Assembly: GCA_041779175.1 (NCBI GenBank)
Contig: JBHBSX010000040.1
Coordinates: forward strand, 1 to 30,297
DNA from: Candidatus Altimarinota bacterium
Lineage (GTDB): Bacteria > Patescibacteriota > Gracilibacteria > BD1-5 > UBA2023
Length of the DNA: 30,297 nucleotides
Direction: 5' to 3'
Part shown: piece by piece, positions 3-7,873 of the stretch
Position numbering within the stretch: position 1 is the first letter of the stretch
Layout of the letters: the number at the start of each line of letters is the position of its first letter
Notes under the pieces: model-generated
The model's input: only the letters and a program-made list of their open reading frames with translations
The model's database searches: none
Told to the model about the DNA's origin: nothing
Program-made: the position numbers and the translations under genes

Positions 3-401
3 TCAATTCTTGCTATTGCTGGAATCGCACTTCTTGCTTCTTGTGGACAATCAACTGATACAACAAGCTCAACAACAACTACAACAACCACTTCAACAAC
101 TGATTCAGTTGATTCTGCTGAAGGTCTTGCTTATAATGATGTACAAACATATACAACTCCAGGTGGTGAGGATAATGTTCGTTTTGTTATGACTACTGAT
201 GGTGCGGGAACAGTAAAAACTCTTGAGGCAACTCTTGTTGAGGGGCATGATATTTCTAAGGGTTTTATAGAAAAATTCTCTGAAGGTGCACAAACTCAAA
301 TTGTTGGTAAAAAAATCGCTGATCTTGGTAATATTTCTGCGGTTGGAGGTGCTTCTCTTACAACAGATGCTTTTAAAAAATTTGTAGCAAATAAACAATA
401 A
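3..401 (+). CDS. FMN-binding (flavinylation substrate) lipoprotein, 5' partial
   Basis: Frame 3 is open from the window edge: SILAIAGIALLASC lipobox, Thr/Ser linker, then a domain ending SAVGGASLTTDAF, resembling the [S/T]GA[S/T] flavinylation motif. TAA at 399-401, 1 nt before apbE. Confidence 0.75.
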   Translation, partial: SILAIAGIALLASCGQSTDTTSSTTTTTTTSTTDSVDSAEGLAYNDVQTYTTPGGEDNVRFVMTTDGAGTVKTLEATLVEGHDISKGFIEKFSEGAQTQIVGKKIADLGNISAVGGASLTTDAFKKFVANKQ

Positions 402-402
402 T

Positions 403-1284
403 ATGCAAAAGTTCCAAAAAAAATCTATTGGAAGTATGCTTTTTTTAGAAATCCAGGGGTCGGAAAATTATGAAAAACTTTTTTCTGAAATTTCCGAATT
501 TCTGGATTTTTTTGAAGCAAAATTTTCTCGATTCCTAAAAAATAATTGGCTTTATAATCTTAATAAAACAGGAAAGGCTGAATTGGATGAATATTCTCGA
601 GAGATGATTGTTTTTATTCAAAATATTACTTCCGAATCGCATGGCTATTTTGATCCTACCATTGGCAAGAGATTGACAGAGCTGGGTTATGGAAATCAGG
701 AAATTTTTTTCTCGCCAACCGTTTTTAATCATAGAAGTTTTGATGAAATTATTTCTTTTGATAATAATTATATTTCTGTTGCTCAAGGATTTGAATTGGA
801 ATTTGGTGGGGTTGGAAAGTGATATCTTATTGACTGGATATATGATTTTTTGATAAAAAATTTGAAAAATTCTGAAAATTTTCTCATCAATTTTGGTGGC
901 GATATGAAGTGTCGAGGAGGTTATAGAATTGCATTGGAATCGCCTTTTGCTGAGGATGAGGCTATTGGAATTATTGATTTAGAAAATCAAAGTCTTGCTT
1001 GCAGTGCGTGAACAAAAAGAAAATTTTGAAAAAATTCTCATCATTTGGTAAATCCATTTTCTGGTGTATCTTCTACTGAAGTGGTGGCAACTTTTTTGCT
1101 TTCTGATGCTGAAAAATCTCATTCTGCTATGCTGGTTGACGCTTGGGCAACAACGCTTTCAGTTATGGAATTTGCAAAAGCACAAATTTTTTTACAAAAT
1201 TTTAGTGATATTTCTGGTTTGATCATCAGAGAAAATGGAGAATTTTTCAAAACAGAAAATTCTTCTATACAACTATTTATATAA
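403..1284 (+). CDS. apbE: FAD:protein FMN transferase (ApbE family), 293 aa with TGA=Gly
   Basis: Motifs YFDPTIG, FGGVGK[TGA=G]Y, NFGGD, HHLVNPFSG and VDAWATTL. One frame through 3 TGAs to TAA at 1282-1284. Confidence 0.92.
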
Positions 1285-1293
1285 TTGTCAATT

Positions 1294-2718
1294 ATGATTC
1301 AAAAAATAAATACAACCTTAAAGCCGGTGGAAAATTTTTTATTACAAAATAAAAAATATATTGGCTATGGTATTCTTGCAATGAGTGTATTTGCAATTTA
1401 CTTTTATCAGAGTTATAAACTTTCCCTTCAATGAGCGGAAATTGCTATGATTCTTTTGTGGATTCTTTTGTGGATGCCGATTTTTTCACGAGTTTTTGGG
1501 ATTAAAGTTTTTGCTGCTTTAATGGGATTTCGTAAGGAAATTGGTATTGTTATGGGGATTTTTTCATTGGTGCATTTTTCTCATATGTTCTCTATGCTTG
1601 GTTATTATTTTGAGAAAAATTTGCCACTGGCTCTTCTGGGAATTATTCCACAAATTATTATTTTTCTTCTTACTATCACATCCAATGATATATCCAAAAA
1701 AATTCTTGGAAAAAATTGGAAAAAACTTCATAGAATGGTGTATATAGTTCCATTGCTGATTGTGCTTCAGATAGGGCTTGCACAGGAGTTTGAAGTGCTT
1801 CCAATAGTGATATTGATAGCATATTATTTTTTCAAAATTCTTGAATGGAAAAATCTAAAATTTTTTACAGAAGAAAAAATAAATTATCCAAAGTGACAAA
1901 AATTCCTTTGTGTTCCTTGTGGTTATATTTATGATCCTGTAAAATGAGATATTGAAGATGGTATTGCTCCTGGAACAGAATTTATAGATATTCCTGATAA
2001 TTGGCGTTGTCCAGAATGTGGTGTGACTAAAGCGGATTTTATTCCATATGATGAAAATAATCAAATTCAGGCAATAAAATTGAAAATTTTTCAAAAAATT
2101 TTCTTGAATCCAACAACTATTGAATTGATTTTAGAAAAGCCTGAAAATTTTTCTCCAAAAATTGGTCAATTTGCTACTTTTGAATATGAGGATGAAAACA
2201 GTAAATTCCGTCGTCAGTATTCCGTTGCAAAAAATGAAAATGGAAAAATTCATTTTCTTATCAAGCTCAAAAAAGATGGACGAGGGGCAAAGATTTTGCA
2301 AGAAATTGCTCAAGGAGAAAATATGAATTTTATAGGATTTTTTGGAGATTTTATTCTTCAGGAAAATGAAAATCCAAAGATATTTATTGCAACAGGAACA
2401 GGTTTGGCACCGATTTATTATATGATGAATAATTCCTTAAGAATTTCTAAAAAATTATTTATGTCTGTGGCAACAAAAGATGAAATTTTTTATAAAAATG
2501 AATTAGAAAGTATTGAAAATCTAGAAATTAACTATCATGTGACTCGTGAAGACGTGGAATGATTTCGTTCTGGCCGAATGGTTTCGGAAGAGATTATTGC
2601 GAATATGCCAAAAAATACAGAATTTTATCTCTGTGGTGCGCCTGCAATGGTAGAAAACACAGTGAATTTTATTAAAAATTCTGGATTTGAGAAGGTATAT
2701 TATGAGGAATTTAATTAA
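1294..2718 (+). CDS. Fusion: MsrQ/ferric-reductase-like membrane domain + rubredoxin + FAD/NAD(P)-binding FNR domain, 474 aa
   Basis: One frame from ATG 1294 to TAA 2716-2718 when TGA=Gly. About 6 TM helices with RKEIG...LVH and WKKLHRMVY. Rubredoxin [10 protein letters not shown]...WRCPECG at about 1897-2040. FNR motifs RQYS, GTGLAP, CGAPAM and terminal EEF. Confidence 0.88.
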
Positions 2719-2760: not shown

Positions 2761-2790
2761 AAAGGACTGCCCATTTGGGCGTCTTTTTTT
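2761..2790 (+). terminator. Terminator-like hairpin in the nusA leader
   Basis: GAC(T)GCCC-ATTT-GGGCGTC followed by a T run, between the putative promoter and ATG 2807. Confidence 0.55.
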
Positions 2791-2806: not shown

Positions 2807-3898
2807 ATGCTTGATTTACAAAATATCAATGCAGCACTGGAAATTGTGTCTGCCGAGAAAAAAATCCCAAAAGAAAAACTTTTGGAAATTATTGAATCTG
2901 CTATCAAAACAGCATACAAACGTGATTATGCATCAAAAGATGCGGAAGTAAATGTGCATATTGATATGCAAACTGGAAAGCTTGAGATTTCTATCACAAA
3001 AGAAGTAGTGGAAGAAGTGGAAGATGAGGATTTGGAAATTTCTTATGAAGAAATTGGCGGTGCGGAATCTGGTTATGAGATCGGAGATATGGTAGAAATT
3101 GATGTTTCTGATGATATTGAAAGTCTTGATGATTTTGGTCGTATTGCTGCACAGGCTGCCAAGAATGTGATTGTGCAAAAAATTTCTGAAACAGAAAAAG
3201 AAAAGTTGTATCATCTTTTTAAAGACAAAGAAGACACTATTGTGGGAATGCGAGTAGAACTGGTTGAAAAGAATAAAGTTACTTTTGATTATAATGGTAA
3301 TCAGGTAGTTCTTCCAAAAAGCGAACAAAATATCAAAGATCGATATACGCCTGGACAGCGTATGCAAATCTATGTTCGCAAGGTGGAAATTGATGAAACT
3401 ACAGGACCACGTGTGGTGCTTTCTCGTAAAGATAAAGAATTGGTGGTAAAGCTTTTTGAAAACAATACTCCTGAATTGGAAGAAGGAATTGTTGAAATTG
3501 TTTCCATTGCTCGTATGCCAGGAATTAAGACAAAGATTATTGTAGCGTCTGATGATAGTGAAGTTGATCCAGCAGGTTGTCTTATTGGTCCAAAAGGAAT
3601 GCGTGTTCGCACTATTGTAGATGAACTTTTTGGAGAAAAAATTGATGTATTGAATTATACTACTAATAAAGAAGAAATGGTTCGTCGTGCTCTTGTTCCT
3701 GGAGTGGTTGAAAAAATTGAAATTGATGAAGAAAATAATATTATCAATGCAACTGTAAAAAATTCTGAAAAGGCAAAAGTTCTCGGAAAAGGTGGTACTA
3801 ATATCAATATTGCTGGAGATCTTCTGGGTTATCGTATCAATCTGACAACTATTGCTGATGAGAATGAAACTTCTGAAAATATCACTGAAAATAAATAA
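2807..3898 (+). CDS. nusA: Transcription termination/antitermination factor NusA
   Basis: FGRIAAQAAKNVIVQKI, S1 domain, GPRVVLSR, ARMPGIKTKI, and KH motifs CLIGPKG and LGKGGTNI. Confidence 0.97.
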   Translation: MLDLQNINAALEIVSAEKKIPKEKLLEIIESAIKTAYKRDYASKDAEVNVHIDMQTGKLEISITKEVVEEVEDEDLEISYEEIGGAESGYEIGDMVEIDVSDDIESLDDFGRIAAQAAKNVIVQKISETEKEKLYHLFKDKEDTIVGMRVELVEKNKVTFDYNGNQVVLPKSEQNIKDRYTPGQRMQIYVRKVEIDETTGPRVVLSRKDKELVVKLFENNTPELEEGIVEIVSIARMPGIKTKIIVASDDSEVDPAGCLIGPKGMRVRTIVDELFGEKIDVLNYTTNKEEMVRRALVPGVVEKIEIDEENNIINATVKNSEKAKVLGKGGTNINIAGDLLGYRINLTTIADENETSENITENK

Positions 3899-5284: not shown

Positions 5285-7873
5285 TTATTGAGGATTATTC
5301 TGATTATTATTTGGTTTCTTTTTCTTTTTATTTTTTGAAAAATTTTTGGAAGGCTGATTATTGTTATTATTTGGATTTTTATTTTCTGGTGGTTTGAGTG
5401 TTGGATTTGGATTTTGTGTTGGTGCTGGTGGTTGTGGTACTGGTACTGTATTGCTTCAGTCAAGAACCACGCCACGCGCCGCCAATCTTTCTTCCATTTT
5501 TTTGCGATTTTCTTCGGCTTTTTCTGCTTTTTTCTTTTCTACGGCTTCCATTTGTTTTTGACGATATTTTTGTTCGTCTTCACGGACTTTTGCCGCATAT
5601 TCAAAAATTTTTTTCTCAACAAAATCTCGTTTTTTGGTATATTTTTCTCGAGAAACCTTAAGAAGAACATCACGAGATTGTTGAGCGGGAACATCAATTC
5701 GCGACATAAGTGGCGCGAGTGTTGTCGCCGAAAAAACGGGCGAAGGCATTCCGTCTATGAGCAATTTGGTATAGATATCGTATTTTCTAAGATTTGTCAA
5801 GTCATGTGGCGAAATCACATCTTCTCAGCCAAACATTTCATAGAGTACGCTTGCGTCCTGTTGTCCCACCTGAAAGGAAATAATCGTCCCCACATTTCCA
5901 AATACCGCGCCCTGAACCGTGTCGGCCATCTGAGAGATATATTGATTCGCCATAGTGAGCGAAAGTTTATACTTTCGGGCTTCCGAGAGAATAGTGGCAA
6001 ATGAGTCAGTTGCAAAATTCTGGAATTCGTCGACATACAAGCCAAAATCTCGGCGATCTTTTTCGGGAATATCAGCACGAGTCATGGCTTCAATCTGGAA
6101 TTTGGTAACCATCATGGCACCTAGCAATGCGGAAGAATCTTCCCCAATTCGTCATTTTGAAAGGTTGACAATAAAGATTTTTCCATTGTCCATAATCCAA
6201 CGCATAGAAAATGGATTTTTGGGCTGACCAAGAATATTGCGAAGAATCGGCGAAGAAAGGAATTGTCCTACTTTGTTGAGAATAGGATTCACCGCTTCAG
6301 AAACCATATTTGGCGACATTTTGTCAAATTCTTCATTCCAGAATTGAACAAGCAGCGGATCATCGAGTTTTGCAACAATTTTTTTTCGATATCATTCATT
6401 GGTGAGAATGAGCGGAATAGACACGAGAGTGGCTTCAGGAACGCGAAGAAGCGTGAGAATAGTATTACGAAGAATATATTCCAGACGCGGTCCCCAAGAA
6501 TCCGCAAACATTTTTTTGAAAATCGAAACCAGTCCAGAACCTACAATAGGACGAAGTTCTGGCGATGGCGACTCGAGCATATTGAAAGCAATGGGGAATT
6601 CTGTATCCGCGGGATCAAAAAGCACAATATCATTGGTGCGAGATTTTGGAATAGAACGCAAAATCGTCTCAGCAAGATCGCCATGCGGATCAATGAGCCC
6701 CACGCCTCGTCCCGCAAGAATATCGGAATAAATCATATTTTCAAGTAGCGTCGATTTTCCCATACCCGTTTTTCCGATAATATAAGTATGACGAGCACGA
6801 TCTACCGGCTGAATCCCGAAATTTTCTTTTTTTCCACGAAAATTAGAAACCCCAATTGGTGTGTTCGGTTCTTCGGCATGTGGCAAATTGTGTGGCGGTT
6901 CGAATCGGCGAGTTGTCACCCAATTCACTCAAGGCGTCTTGACATAAATGGTCGGCATGTGCACGAGTCCAGCCAGTTCTGTTACTGAGAGAATGCTTTT
7001 GAATGGGGAATATGGAGTCAGCGTTTGTTCATAAGATTTTCGCAAAATTTTTTTGGAAGGGAGAAACTTGGCTCCATGTGGTGATGAGAAAATTGTGAGA
7101 CTGGATGAGAGTTCTTTGTTGCGATGAGATTTGGTGGACGCAAGCAGAATCCTTGTGGAATAACCATAAGTAGCGAATTTTTCTGAAGTTTCTTCGTCTT
7201 TTTTTTCGGAATTATTTTCGGTTTCTGTTGGTTTTGTGATAAAAATTTGGAGAAAAAATTTTAAAAAAATCCAAGGCCAAGTTATCATCCAAATCCACCA
7301 ATTATGCGATAATTGAAAAATTTTTCTTCTGTCGGAAATATTCGAAGCAATGATTTTTTGAGATTTTTCATCACGAAATCTGTCATCTTCCAGCGGCGAA
7401 AAATCCACACGAAAAAATGAAATTTCGTCTTTTCCAGAGTGTGAAAGCACGGAAGTTATAGGCGAAAGCGGATCAATAGTTTCCTTTTCTGTTCGGTCTT
7501 TGAGATTGACATACAGCTTGATAATTTTGTTGCTGATTTTGTCAAGATGTGCTTCTTGAGTAAAAAATTCTTGTGTTGGCAAAAATGGAAGTTCTGATTC
7601 GGTAATTTCTATGTTATTGTAGTGAGCATAGAGTTGCGATTCAAGAAATTCTTTATATTTTTTTGGGGTTTCAAAGAAAAAACGAATGCGTCCAGCTGCA
7701 TGCACGACTAAAAATCGAAAAGTTGGTCGTTTTCGAAAATTGGGAATCAAAGATTTTTTTTCAAAATTGAGAACATCATGGAGAGTCGAAAGCATTTCTT
7801 TTGCAATAAAAACTCATTTTTCATTGTGGCGATCGACAGCAATTTCGAGAATTTGTGTTTCTTCTTTTTTCAT
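5285..7873 (-). CDS. VirD4/TraD-like type IV coupling-protein family ATPase, 862 aa
   Basis: Single frame with TGA=Gly joins five ORF-track fragments. Walker A GKTGMGKST, LIDPHGDLA, WGPRLEYILRN, Walker B YVDEFQNF and SEARKY. P/N/K-rich low-complexity C-tail. Confidence 0.88.

Follow-up and report, generated by a model that had tools for sequence, protein, structure and literature searches.

A predicted MsrQ-like, flavinylation-associated electron-transfer module in a recoded Gracilibacterium

Three co-oriented genes at the start of the window (the whole 30,297-nucleotide stretch of DNA analysed) probably form a lineage-specific MsrQ-like module for flavinylation-associated transmembrane electron transfer (probability about 0.7). 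The host is a recoded (UGA = Gly), animal-associated Gracilibacterium. In the proposed route, the FNR module of a tripartite oxidoreductase would oxidize NAD(P)H on the cytoplasmic side and its FAD would pass electrons, one at a time, to the iron of a fused rubredoxin. From there they would reach a cofactor inside a six-helix STEAP/NOX-type membrane domain and, at the outer face, FMN covalently bound to Ser118 of a lipid-anchored lipoprotein. ApbE, encoded between the lipoprotein and tripartite genes, would install this FMN from FAD. We infer the electron-transfer steps, the flavinylation and the direction of flow from gene order, domains, conserved motifs, co-conservation and fold similarity. 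This order of carriers, already put forward in the original prediction, fits the architecture and the NOX-like fold. The module's most likely role is to rid the cytoplasm of reducing equivalents by passing them to an acceptor outside the cell, for redox balancing or extracellular reduction, in a symbiont deficient in heme, FAD and respiration.

Read with table 11, the start of the window breaks into fragmented ORFs; table 25 (TGA = Gly) gives three clean ORFs in the same orientation (3-401, 403-1284 and 1285/1294-2718). Support for table 25 comes from a tRNA with a UCA anticodon in the genome and from TGA codons on conserved Gly columns, for example G218 of the rubredoxin D-P-x-x-G-D turn. The features are as follows.

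3 to 401, forward strand: FMN_bind-like lipoprotein P0001, 132 aa seen, 5'-truncated (lipobox, weak Pfam FMN_bind match, structural model and fold match)
403 to 1284, forward strand: ApbE (FAD:protein FMN transferase) P0002, 293 aa, three in-frame TGA = Gly codons (Pfam ApbE match and motifs)
1294 to 2718, forward strand: tripartite oxidoreductase P0003, 474 aa, alternative TTG start at 1285, four in-frame TGA = Gly codons
1294 to 1863, forward strand: six-helix membrane domain of STEAP/MsrQ/NOX type, residues 1-190 of P0003 (Ferric_reduct 28.9 bits, cut-off 28)
1900 to 2040, forward strand: rubredoxin domain, residues 203-249 (PF00301, 70.5 bits; two C-x-x-C pairs)
2059 to 2715, forward strand: FNR-like FAD/NAD(P)H module, residues 256-474 (FAD_binding_6 and NAD_binding_1; motifs R-x-Y-S, G-T-G-x-A-P and C-G)
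2723 to 2750: promoter-like site before the next gene (2807-3898), a consensus match no commoner than in shuffled sequence
2768 to 2781, forward strand: weak terminator-like hairpin 3' of gene 3, a consensus match no commoner than in shuffled sequence

The intergenic gaps are 1 nt (position 402) and, given ATG 1294 as the start of gene 3, 9 nt (1285-1293), so the tight operon described earlier stands. The domain content proposed for the three genes was likewise borne out by Pfam matches and motifs, with the FMN_bind match of the lipoprotein (18.4 bits) falling below its cut-off of 22. Since base 1 of the window is also base 1 of its contig, gene 1 is cut at its 5' end and no upstream genes can be read in this assembly. 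The upstream genes, whose retrieval had been recommended, were instead viewed in a second genome of the same genus (G159), where an operon of the same three genes sits behind a divergent gene; the module therefore consists of three genes.

P0003 is a fusion of a ferric-reductase-type membrane domain, a rubredoxin and an FNR module. Its model had a pLDDT of 92.4 and its top whole-chain fold match was the bacterial NADPH oxidase SpNOX (8qt6, E 1e-16); homologues with the same architecture carry the names Candidatus Gracilibacteria or Altimarinota. The rubredoxin cysteines 206, 209, 239 and 242 (TTG-start numbering) are invariant in 92 family members, and the domain matched solved rubredoxins down to E 1e-16. 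In the reductase part, FAD_binding_6 (PF00970, 30.1 bits) and NAD_binding_1 (PF00175, 39.8 bits) both scored above cut-off, the NCBIfam match was to MmoC/BenC-type reductases, and Foldseek gave TM values of 0.7 to 0.8 to ferredoxin-NADP reductases. In SpNOX (8qt6, 8qq7) and the eukaryotic NOX/DUOX enzymes, too, an FNR-like dehydrogenase domain follows a ferric-reductase membrane domain, but NOX carries two bis-His hemes and lacks a rubredoxin.

A profile search with the membrane domain retrieved STEAP2 (7tai, E 1.4e-4) and also STEAP4 (6hcy), and ligand and FAD-site positions were mapped by alignment onto STEAP4 (PMC6194020). H94 (nt 1573-1575) is equivalent to the TM3 heme ligand H304, whereas Q159 (nt 1768-1770) occupies the position of the TM5 ligand H397, so that only one residue of the bis-His pair for an outer heme is present. 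Position 159 is Gln in five of 92 family members, which make up the window clade, and His in the other 87. Six helices are seen in the model, yet the conserved heme-ligand His pair of MsrQ-like systems is incomplete, and the STEAP residue replaced by Q159 has been reported as imperative for heme binding (PMC6194020). The membrane cofactor of the original prediction is accordingly not a standard bis-His heme pair. An outer heme, if present, would retain one of its two usual His ligands.

Residues R80, S130, W142-K143, H146 (nt 1729-1731) and Y150 are conserved in the membrane domain, and R80, S130 and W142-K143 show little or no variation among 92 family members and 146 representatives. R80 may occupy the place of the inner TM3 histidine of NOX. 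Five residues, R80, K81, G84, S130 and H146, fall opposite R290, K291, G294, S366 and Q383 of the STEAP4 FAD site; because the FAD-binding residues are conserved, an inner-leaflet flavin is most likely the conserved cofactor of this domain. Both ligand histidines are absent in 58 of 124 full-length representatives. All 12 of the loci of this kind that were inspected adjoin ApbE, and the STEAP FAD-site residues are invariant there.

The likeness to STEAP (PMC6194020) thus covers the profile alignment with STEAP2/4, the FAD-site residues and H304. It does not extend to H397 or to the NADPH module, which is of FNR type with rubredoxin here and F420H2-oxidoreductase-like in STEAP, and electrons here would leave via a partner flavoprotein and not pass straight to a metal. 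A STEAP-like membrane domain could also belong to an assimilatory ferric (or cupric) reductase, in which the outer FMN or a heme would reduce extracellular Fe(III) for uptake. STEAPs act in this manner, and the same function has been suggested for some MsrQ-like and PepSY-like flavinylation clusters. VIT1 iron transporters accompany published MsrQ-like clusters in some cases (PMC8238504), and the rubredoxin and Fe-S proteins of this cell require iron. However, this genome (81% complete) yielded neither VIT1 nor a FeoB C-terminal domain, and the genes sampled around related clusters, which are unrelated housekeeping genes, included no iron transporter or regulator. FeoB_N matches were rejected as iron transporters, being generic GTPases for which the control was positive in all 14 genomes. 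An iron role had been among the functions originally suggested; with VIT1 and the FeoB C-terminal domain looked for, nothing specifically favours iron uptake, and we consider it unlikely.

For the module proposed here, the lipoprotein is the presumed outer redox partner. It has a lipobox (L-A-S-C, with Cys14 at nt 42-44), a Thr/Ser-rich linker and a folded domain of residues 41-132 (nt 123-398) whose model has pLDDT > 90. The predicted flavinylation residue Ser118 (nt 354-356) lies within V-G-G-A-S-L-T, and G-G-A-S-L-T stands where the flavinylation motif belongs. Compared with D-x-x-[S/T]-G-A-[S/T], the site S-A-V-G-G-A-S keeps the G-A-S core and the acceptor Ser and lacks Asp(-6) and S/T(-3); replacing the motif Asp by Ala reportedly has little effect. 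The sub-threshold Pfam match (PF04205, E 0.0034) spans profile positions 4-74 of 77. Four of ten relatives match FMN_bind at E ≤ 0.05, no rival family recurs, and C14 and S118 are invariant in all ten.

By fold, the domain resembles the FMN-binding domain 8p2a (Z 7.5, 85 of 89 residues, 21% identity), followed by 8p2b (Z 7.2), RnfG (7.0) and NqrC (6.8), with IscU and lipoyl-ligase C-terminal domains tying with these folds (Z 7.0-7.6). Foldseek of the model against the PDB gave no match at E ≤ 0.001. A profile search of PDB sequences returned RnfG alone (E 0.14), with S118 opposite the Thr of the RnfG G-A-T, which we take to be the flavinylated residue of RnfG. The protein is presumed to be a divergent FMN_bind domain protein and is a predicted ApbE substrate. 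Prediction of a complex between its folded domain and the membrane domain (table-4 record P0004, with W for G at codon 47) gave no answer (score 0.01).

The product of gene 2 is a well-supported ApbE (PF02424, 109.5 bits against a cut-off of 25.6), and alignment to solved ApbEs showed that the motifs FDPT, GG-x-x-KGY, GGD, HH-x-x-P and DA-x-x-T are kept. No signal peptide, lipobox or hydrophobic leader was found in any of 22 ApbE N-termini inspected (P0002 and 21 related proteins), and in P0002 the first beta-strand begins at about residue 9. Most ApbEs are secreted and those lacking a signal act on cytosolic targets, according to a review, whereas the presumed substrate here is a Sec-type lipoprotein. 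Attachment of FMN to an extracytosolic protein in the textbook way, as first envisaged, cannot work here because ApbE is signal-less and the lipoprotein is Sec-exported. Searches of the order revealed neither a Tat system nor, in 41 genomes, an FAD synthetase, and no ECF-type transporter was found.

These features could indicate that ApbE is a cytoplasmic flavin-trafficking enzyme in an FAD auxotroph, either an FAD pyrophosphatase of the Treponema Ftp type or a transferase acting on a cytosolic target, and that the lipoprotein is not its substrate. The lack of a signal peptide and of FAD synthetase, the behaviour of known signal-less ApbEs and the existence of Kaiserbacteria-type clusters (ApbE, membrane protein and FNR) with no recognisable FMN_bind gene nearby are all consistent with this. 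Yet in more than 20 genomes the gene immediately before ApbE is that of the lipoprotein, whose Ser at the flavinylation position is invariant, and the membrane and FNR proteins of the loci checked showed no site resembling [S/T]-G-A-[S/T]. A purely trafficking ApbE is thus very unlikely.

A more specific form of the electron-transfer module, which we put forward only tentatively, combines the unusual features of ApbE and the membrane domain. A heme-free, all-flavin conduit might have evolved from the STEAP/MsrQ type in CPR bacteria unable to make heme or FAD, keeping the membrane flavin site while both ligand histidines were lost, with the flavinylated lipoprotein as outer redox centre; the window protein, with H94 and Q159, would then be an uncommon intermediate. 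Flavinylation of the pre-lipoprotein would precede Sec export and be carried out by the signal-less ApbE in the cytosol, where there is FAD. If true, ApbE substrates would have a hitherto undescribed route to flavinylation.

The module is not a new kind of system, because it has the features by which MsrQ-like systems were defined operationally by Méheust et al. 2021 (PMC8238504), namely a Ferric_reduct match (28.9 against 28), an adjacent ApbE and a lipobox (L-A-S-C), and because the tripartite protein is itself published. MsrQ-like clusters (PMC8238504; Huang et al. 2024, mSystems, PMC11334425) likewise comprise ApbE, a lipoprotein with an FMN-binding domain and a membrane protein (PF01794) whose NAD-binding PF00175 domain is cytosolic, and a path from NAD(P)H to an extracytosolic flavin has been proposed for them. 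They are mostly actinobacterial and CPR bacteria were called strikingly under-represented, whereas the window is from the CPR; the portion of the eLife supplement text available to us contains no Patescibacteria or Gracilibacteria entries. The window cluster also differs in the rubredoxin inserted between membrane domain and FNR, in an FMN_bind match below the Pfam cut-off, in an ApbE lacking a signal peptide and in having Gln for one of the conserved heme-ligand histidines, a pair that sister lineages have lost altogether.

Extracellular electron transfer in Listeria (FmnB/PplA/Ndh2/EetAB; Light et al. 2018, cited in PMC8238504 and PMC9973259) offers a functional parallel: this monoderm has an ApbE-type enzyme, and a flavinylated surface lipoprotein is the last protein carrier in the disposal of cytosolic reducing power. 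In Listeria, however, FmnB is itself exported as a lipoprotein, its FAD comes through an ECF exporter, and quinone takes the electrons across the membrane, whereas here ApbE looks cytosolic and the crossing would fall to one NAD(P)H-linked membrane protein.

ApbE occurs in 46 of 151 genomes of the class. An FMN_bind-like lipoprotein gene lies directly upstream of it in more than 20 genomes, and after this pair there usually comes a homologous membrane domain linked to FNR through a rubredoxin or a 4Fe-4S domain; the 4Fe-4S-type relatives follow the same logic with different parts. Adjacency of ApbE and a homologous membrane domain was seen in several separate lineages (the window, G159, G117, G145, G171, and Fer4-FNR-TM and TM-only forms). 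ApbE and the membrane/rubredoxin part co-occur by family, since they were found in 13 and 14 of 14 genomes of family f1, in 10 and 13 of 13 of f2, and in 0 and 1 of 13 of f3, respectively. Loci L023, L024, L026 and L039 were read by homology.

The three-gene linkage is lineage-specific because the tripartite gene is not beside ApbE in most other sampled Gracilibacteria. Co-conservation, on which the original prediction had been staked, was found for the lipoprotein gene, which precedes ApbE, and for the FNR-bearing ferric-reductase-type membrane protein that comes after ApbE in many genomes, but the tripartite gene itself mostly lies apart in the other Gracilibacteria sampled, after GltX, two small genes and YceG. 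Small proteins encoded upstream of the tripartite gene (L006-L008) were considered as diverged partners and dropped, as they are not FMN_bind-like.

The same three-part architecture is found, by its published description, in Vamp_33_45 of Vampirococcus lugosii and other Absconditabacteria, with flavocytochrome-like membrane, rubredoxin-like and NAD-binding ferredoxin-reductase domains conserved across recoded CPR lineages (PMC8080830). For this protein Moreira et al. 2021 (PMC8080830) proposed generation of PMF or ROS-linked redox balancing and mentioned no ApbE or FMN-binding partner, whereas here it is in an operon with both. The tripartite protein could accordingly act alone, as a NOX-like O2/ROS enzyme or a PMF device of the Vampirococcus type, with ApbE and the lipoprotein serving a separate, neighbouring function. 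That its closest fold is an NADPH oxidase and that copies distant from ApbE retain all three histidines agrees with this. Against it, ApbE stands beside homologous membrane domains in separate lineages and architectures, the genes are tightly packed in this genus, and no proton-pumping element is evident, making independent action distinctly unlikely.

Several features of the preferred module appear to be new: ApbE with an upstream FMN_bind-like lipoprotein widespread in a class that published surveys called under-represented, a signal-less ApbE paired with a presumed Sec-type substrate, Gln at one of the two STEAP heme-ligand positions in the window protein, and invariant STEAP FAD-site residues in the ApbE-linked relatives lacking both ligand histidines. 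The under-representation is likely to arise because these clusters lack both the signal peptide and the Pfam-level FMN_bind match on which the survey insisted. The missing heme ligand and the ApbE without an export signal hint at a heme-poor, flavin-based outward electron route.

The usual picture of Gracilibacteria and Absconditabacteria is of non-respiring fermenters whose few electron carriers lack assigned partners. The link to ApbE and a predicted surface flavoprotein gives the orphan tripartite oxidoreductase a concrete proposed output, electrons at the cell surface, and flavinylation-based electron transfer may be common in this CPR class, judging from its ApbE genes. If confirmed, ferric-reductase-fold membrane proteins without heme ligands and a cytosolic ApbE with an exported substrate would each alter textbook statements, and both features bear on the redox balance of heme- and flavin-auxotrophic symbionts at the surface of their hosts.

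Read with translation table 11, the first 2.7 kb of the window consists of short broken ORFs. Read with table 25 (TGA = Gly), it begins with three co-oriented genes, separated by 1 nt and 9 nt as originally predicted.

3-401, + strand: gene 1, lipoprotein; table 25 ORF, 5' end open because the window starts at contig base 1
403-1284, + strand: gene 2, ApbE; table 25 ORF
1285/1294-2718, + strand: gene 3, tripartite protein (membrane domain, rubredoxin, FNR); table 25 ORF

Two results support table 25. The window's genome (G000) encodes a tRNA with anticodon UCA (G000:C45:2406-2484, labelled SeC by aragorn), which is consistent with UGA as a sense codon, and the seven TGA codons that stand in frame in genes 2 and 3 align with Gly columns; one of them is G218, within the D-P-x-x-G-D turn of the rubredoxin. 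tRNA-Trp(CCA) was not detected in this 81%-complete assembly. The predicted domain content of ApbE and the membrane oxidoreductase was confirmed by Pfam, all five domains being above cut-off: ApbE (109.5 bits) in gene 2, with the motifs of solved ApbE structures retained, and Ferric_reduct (28.9 bits, cut-off 28), Rubredoxin (70.5), FAD_binding_6 (30.1) and NAD_binding_1 (39.8) in gene 3. These ORFs and Pfam matches show that the gene cluster is real. Elsewhere in the window, 5285-7873 (- strand) holds an ORF of 862 aa; it has Walker-type motifs, and its C-terminus is of low complexity and rich in Asn, Lys and Pro.

The gene 3 model has a pLDDT of 92.4, and a whole-chain structure search gave SpNOX, a bacterial NADPH oxidase, as best match, followed by many FNR-type reductases. 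The four rubredoxin cysteines and the FNR motifs are invariant in 92 family members.

In the gene 1 protein, the lipobox (L-A-S-C) is followed by a linker rich in Thr and Ser and then by a domain of 90 residues. Its description as an FMN-binding lipoprotein holds for the lipobox and a putative flavin site, although the FMN_bind match, which spans nearly the whole profile, is weak (18.4 bits against a Pfam cut-off of 22). The domain is predicted to form three strands then three helices (pLDDT > 90) and matches 8p2a, a crystal structure of an ApbE-flavinylated FMN domain (Z 7.5, 85/89 residues, 21% identity), as well as 8p2b, RnfG and NqrC. IscU-like domains score level with FMN domains, so fold similarity by itself does not settle the assignment. 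In a profile of ten relatives, the consensus V-S-G-S-S-L-T aligns onto RnfG I-T-G-A-T-I-T, with Ser118 opposite the Thr that we take to be flavinylated in RnfG; in the ten relatives, neither Ser118 nor the lipobox Cys varies. The candidate site, S-A-V-G-G-A-S, about 14 residues from the C-terminus, departs from the motif D-x-x-[S/T]-G-A-[S/T] but retains its G-A-S core; replacing the Asp with Ala is reported to make only a small difference (ApbE review).

G000 encodes a second FMN_bind-like lipoprotein (C68:777-1274) of 165 aa, with lipobox F-A-S-C and the site I-G-G-A-S-D-T. A further lipoprotein-like ORF comes after it, and neither ApbE nor an oxidoreductase lies close by; the protein may serve as an additional substrate for this genome's single ApbE. 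At another locus (L046, G167:C69:2428-3927), the gene 3' of ApbE encodes an exported 499-aa protein in which residues 185-265 weakly resemble FMN_bind, a candidate substrate larger than the usual 130-210-aa lipoproteins.

ApbEs are mostly exported lipoproteins, and Salmonella enterica ApbE kept in the cytosol does not complement a knockout; the signal-less ApbEs known so far have cytosolic targets (ApbE review). The gene 2 ApbE has no signal peptide, nor has any of the 22 ApbE genes with a placeable start, while all FMN_bind-like partners carry Sec-type lipoprotein signals. Neither TatC nor FAD synthetase was found above cut-off in any of the 41 genomes of the window's order, and the window's genome (81% complete) yielded no ECF-type vitamin transporter. 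Since a seven-residue tag is enough for ApbE recognition, best at a protein terminus (ApbE review), and the candidate site lies near the C-terminus of a Sec-type partner, it is conceivable that a signal-less ApbE flavinylates the pre-lipoprotein in the cytoplasm, ahead of Sec export.

In G159, of the same genus, the operon has the identical order. The lipoprotein there is full-length and starts with a short signal of Sec type that lacks a twin-arginine, and the next gene upstream is divergent; thus, the module comprises three genes. ApbE occurs in 46 of the 151 Gracilibacteria genomes, and an FMN_bind-like gene lies directly 5' of it in more than 20 places. Housekeeping genes of unrelated function flank these loci. 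The genes 3' of ApbE vary, as versions of one logic across lineages.

Gene content 3' of ApbE (G, genomes; L, loci)
Membrane domain, rubredoxin, FNR: window, G159, G117, G145, G171
4Fe-4S ferredoxin domain, FNR, membrane domain: G069, G125, G047, G097, G021, G003, L049, L050
Membrane domain alone: G035, G059, G022
ApbE, membrane protein and FNR as separate genes, free rubredoxin nearby: L047, L048 (Kaiserbacteria-type)

At L047 and L048 the membrane protein is His-less, the three genes are divergent from a Response_reg/HisKA two-component system and a 56-aa rubredoxin, and no FMN_bind-like gene was seen nearby.

Among three families of the order, ApbE is present in 13/14, 10/13 and 0/13 genomes and the membrane/rubredoxin part in 14/14, 13/13 and 1/13, counts that are descriptive rather than statistical, the genomes being mutually related. 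The expected co-conservation of the three genes extends to G159 and further ApbE-linked lineages, but three long Gracilibacteria contigs and G099, G109, G155, G161 and G173 carry the tripartite gene apart from ApbE, after GltX, two small genes and YceG. This string, its small genes unannotated, was seen at L006, L007 and L008 (and L021); its neighbours at L006 and L008 include genes for sulfur handling (rhodanese, glutaredoxin, Lactamase_B, Sulf_transp, HTH_5), and those at L007 include rhodanese genes.

The membrane-domain profile matches STEAP2 (E 1.4e-4) and STEAP4. STEAP4 ligates its single outer heme through H304 and H397, both essential for heme binding, and uses R290, K291, G294, S366 and Q383 to bind an FAD that lies within the membrane, 9.7 Å from that heme (PMC6194020).

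STEAP4 residues and aligned positions in the tripartite family
H304, heme ligand (TM3): H94
H397, heme ligand (TM5): position 159
R290, K291, G294, FAD site: R80, K81, G84
S366, FAD site: S130
Q383, FAD site: position 146

Positions 94/146/159 read H-H-H in 70 of the 92 tripartite proteins, H-Q-H in 17 and H-H-Q in five, namely the window protein and its closest relatives; the G159 copy, analysed apart, is also H-H-Q. Judged by this alignment, the window protein lacks one putative heme ligand, because Q stands opposite H397. Eight ApbE-linked membrane proteins from sister lineages have residues other than histidine at both ligand positions, and three of these membrane domains have no histidine anywhere; R80, S130, W142-K143, Q/H146 and Y150 are invariant in all eight. 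One His-less domain had only 146 relatives among 1.84 billion representatives (both ligand histidines absent in 58, both present in 63, one in 3, partial sequences 22); the named His-less relatives belong to Candidatus Kaiserbacteria and Candidatus Peregrinibacteria. ApbE adjoins four additional His-less loci, which brings the total to 12 of 12 inspected. Of the 41 genomes of the order, just one has a recognised ferrochelatase. With FAD-site residues invariant, ligand histidines missing from many relatives and ferrochelatase rare, the alignments point to the flavin site rather than the heme site as the conserved putative cofactor site.

The ferrochelatase of that one genome, G155 (266 bits), looks native from its in-frame TGA codons; it lies about 1.5 kb from an ApbE gene preceded by two tandem FMN_bind-like lipoprotein genes (L043, G155:C1:285000-299000).

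The cluster fits the operational definition of MsrQ-like flavinylation-associated systems, of which 1797 were described, mostly in Actinobacteria (C-terminal PF00175 in 1437), with extracytosolic flavinylation strikingly under-represented in the candidate phyla radiation (CPR) (PMC8238504). The clusters described here would largely have been excluded by that survey's filter, which asked for a signal peptide and a Pfam-level FMN_bind hit. A tripartite protein has been described in Vampirococcus lugosii: Vamp_33_45, conserved in Absconditabacteria and proposed as a PMF or redox-balancing device, in a paper that does not mention ApbE (PMC8080830). No paper linking the tripartite protein with ApbE was found in the literature searched. 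The module is thus of a known kind, and the original prediction was correct in outline.

In the best-supported reading, the three proteins would relay electrons one at a time from NAD(P)H to a flavoprotein at the cell surface, and so rid a non-respiring organism of reducing equivalents. Iron uptake has no specific support, since VIT1 and the FeoB C-terminal domain were not found in the window's genome (81% complete) and FeoB_N matches were generic GTPases only. The locus is present in pig and animal oral metagenomes, indicating an animal-associated organism. The value of the finding lies in tying an orphan tripartite protein to flavinylation, in showing how often such modules occur in a CPR class, in the partnering of a lipoprotein with a signal-less ApbE, and in the apparent erosion of heme ligands while the putative flavin site is retained.
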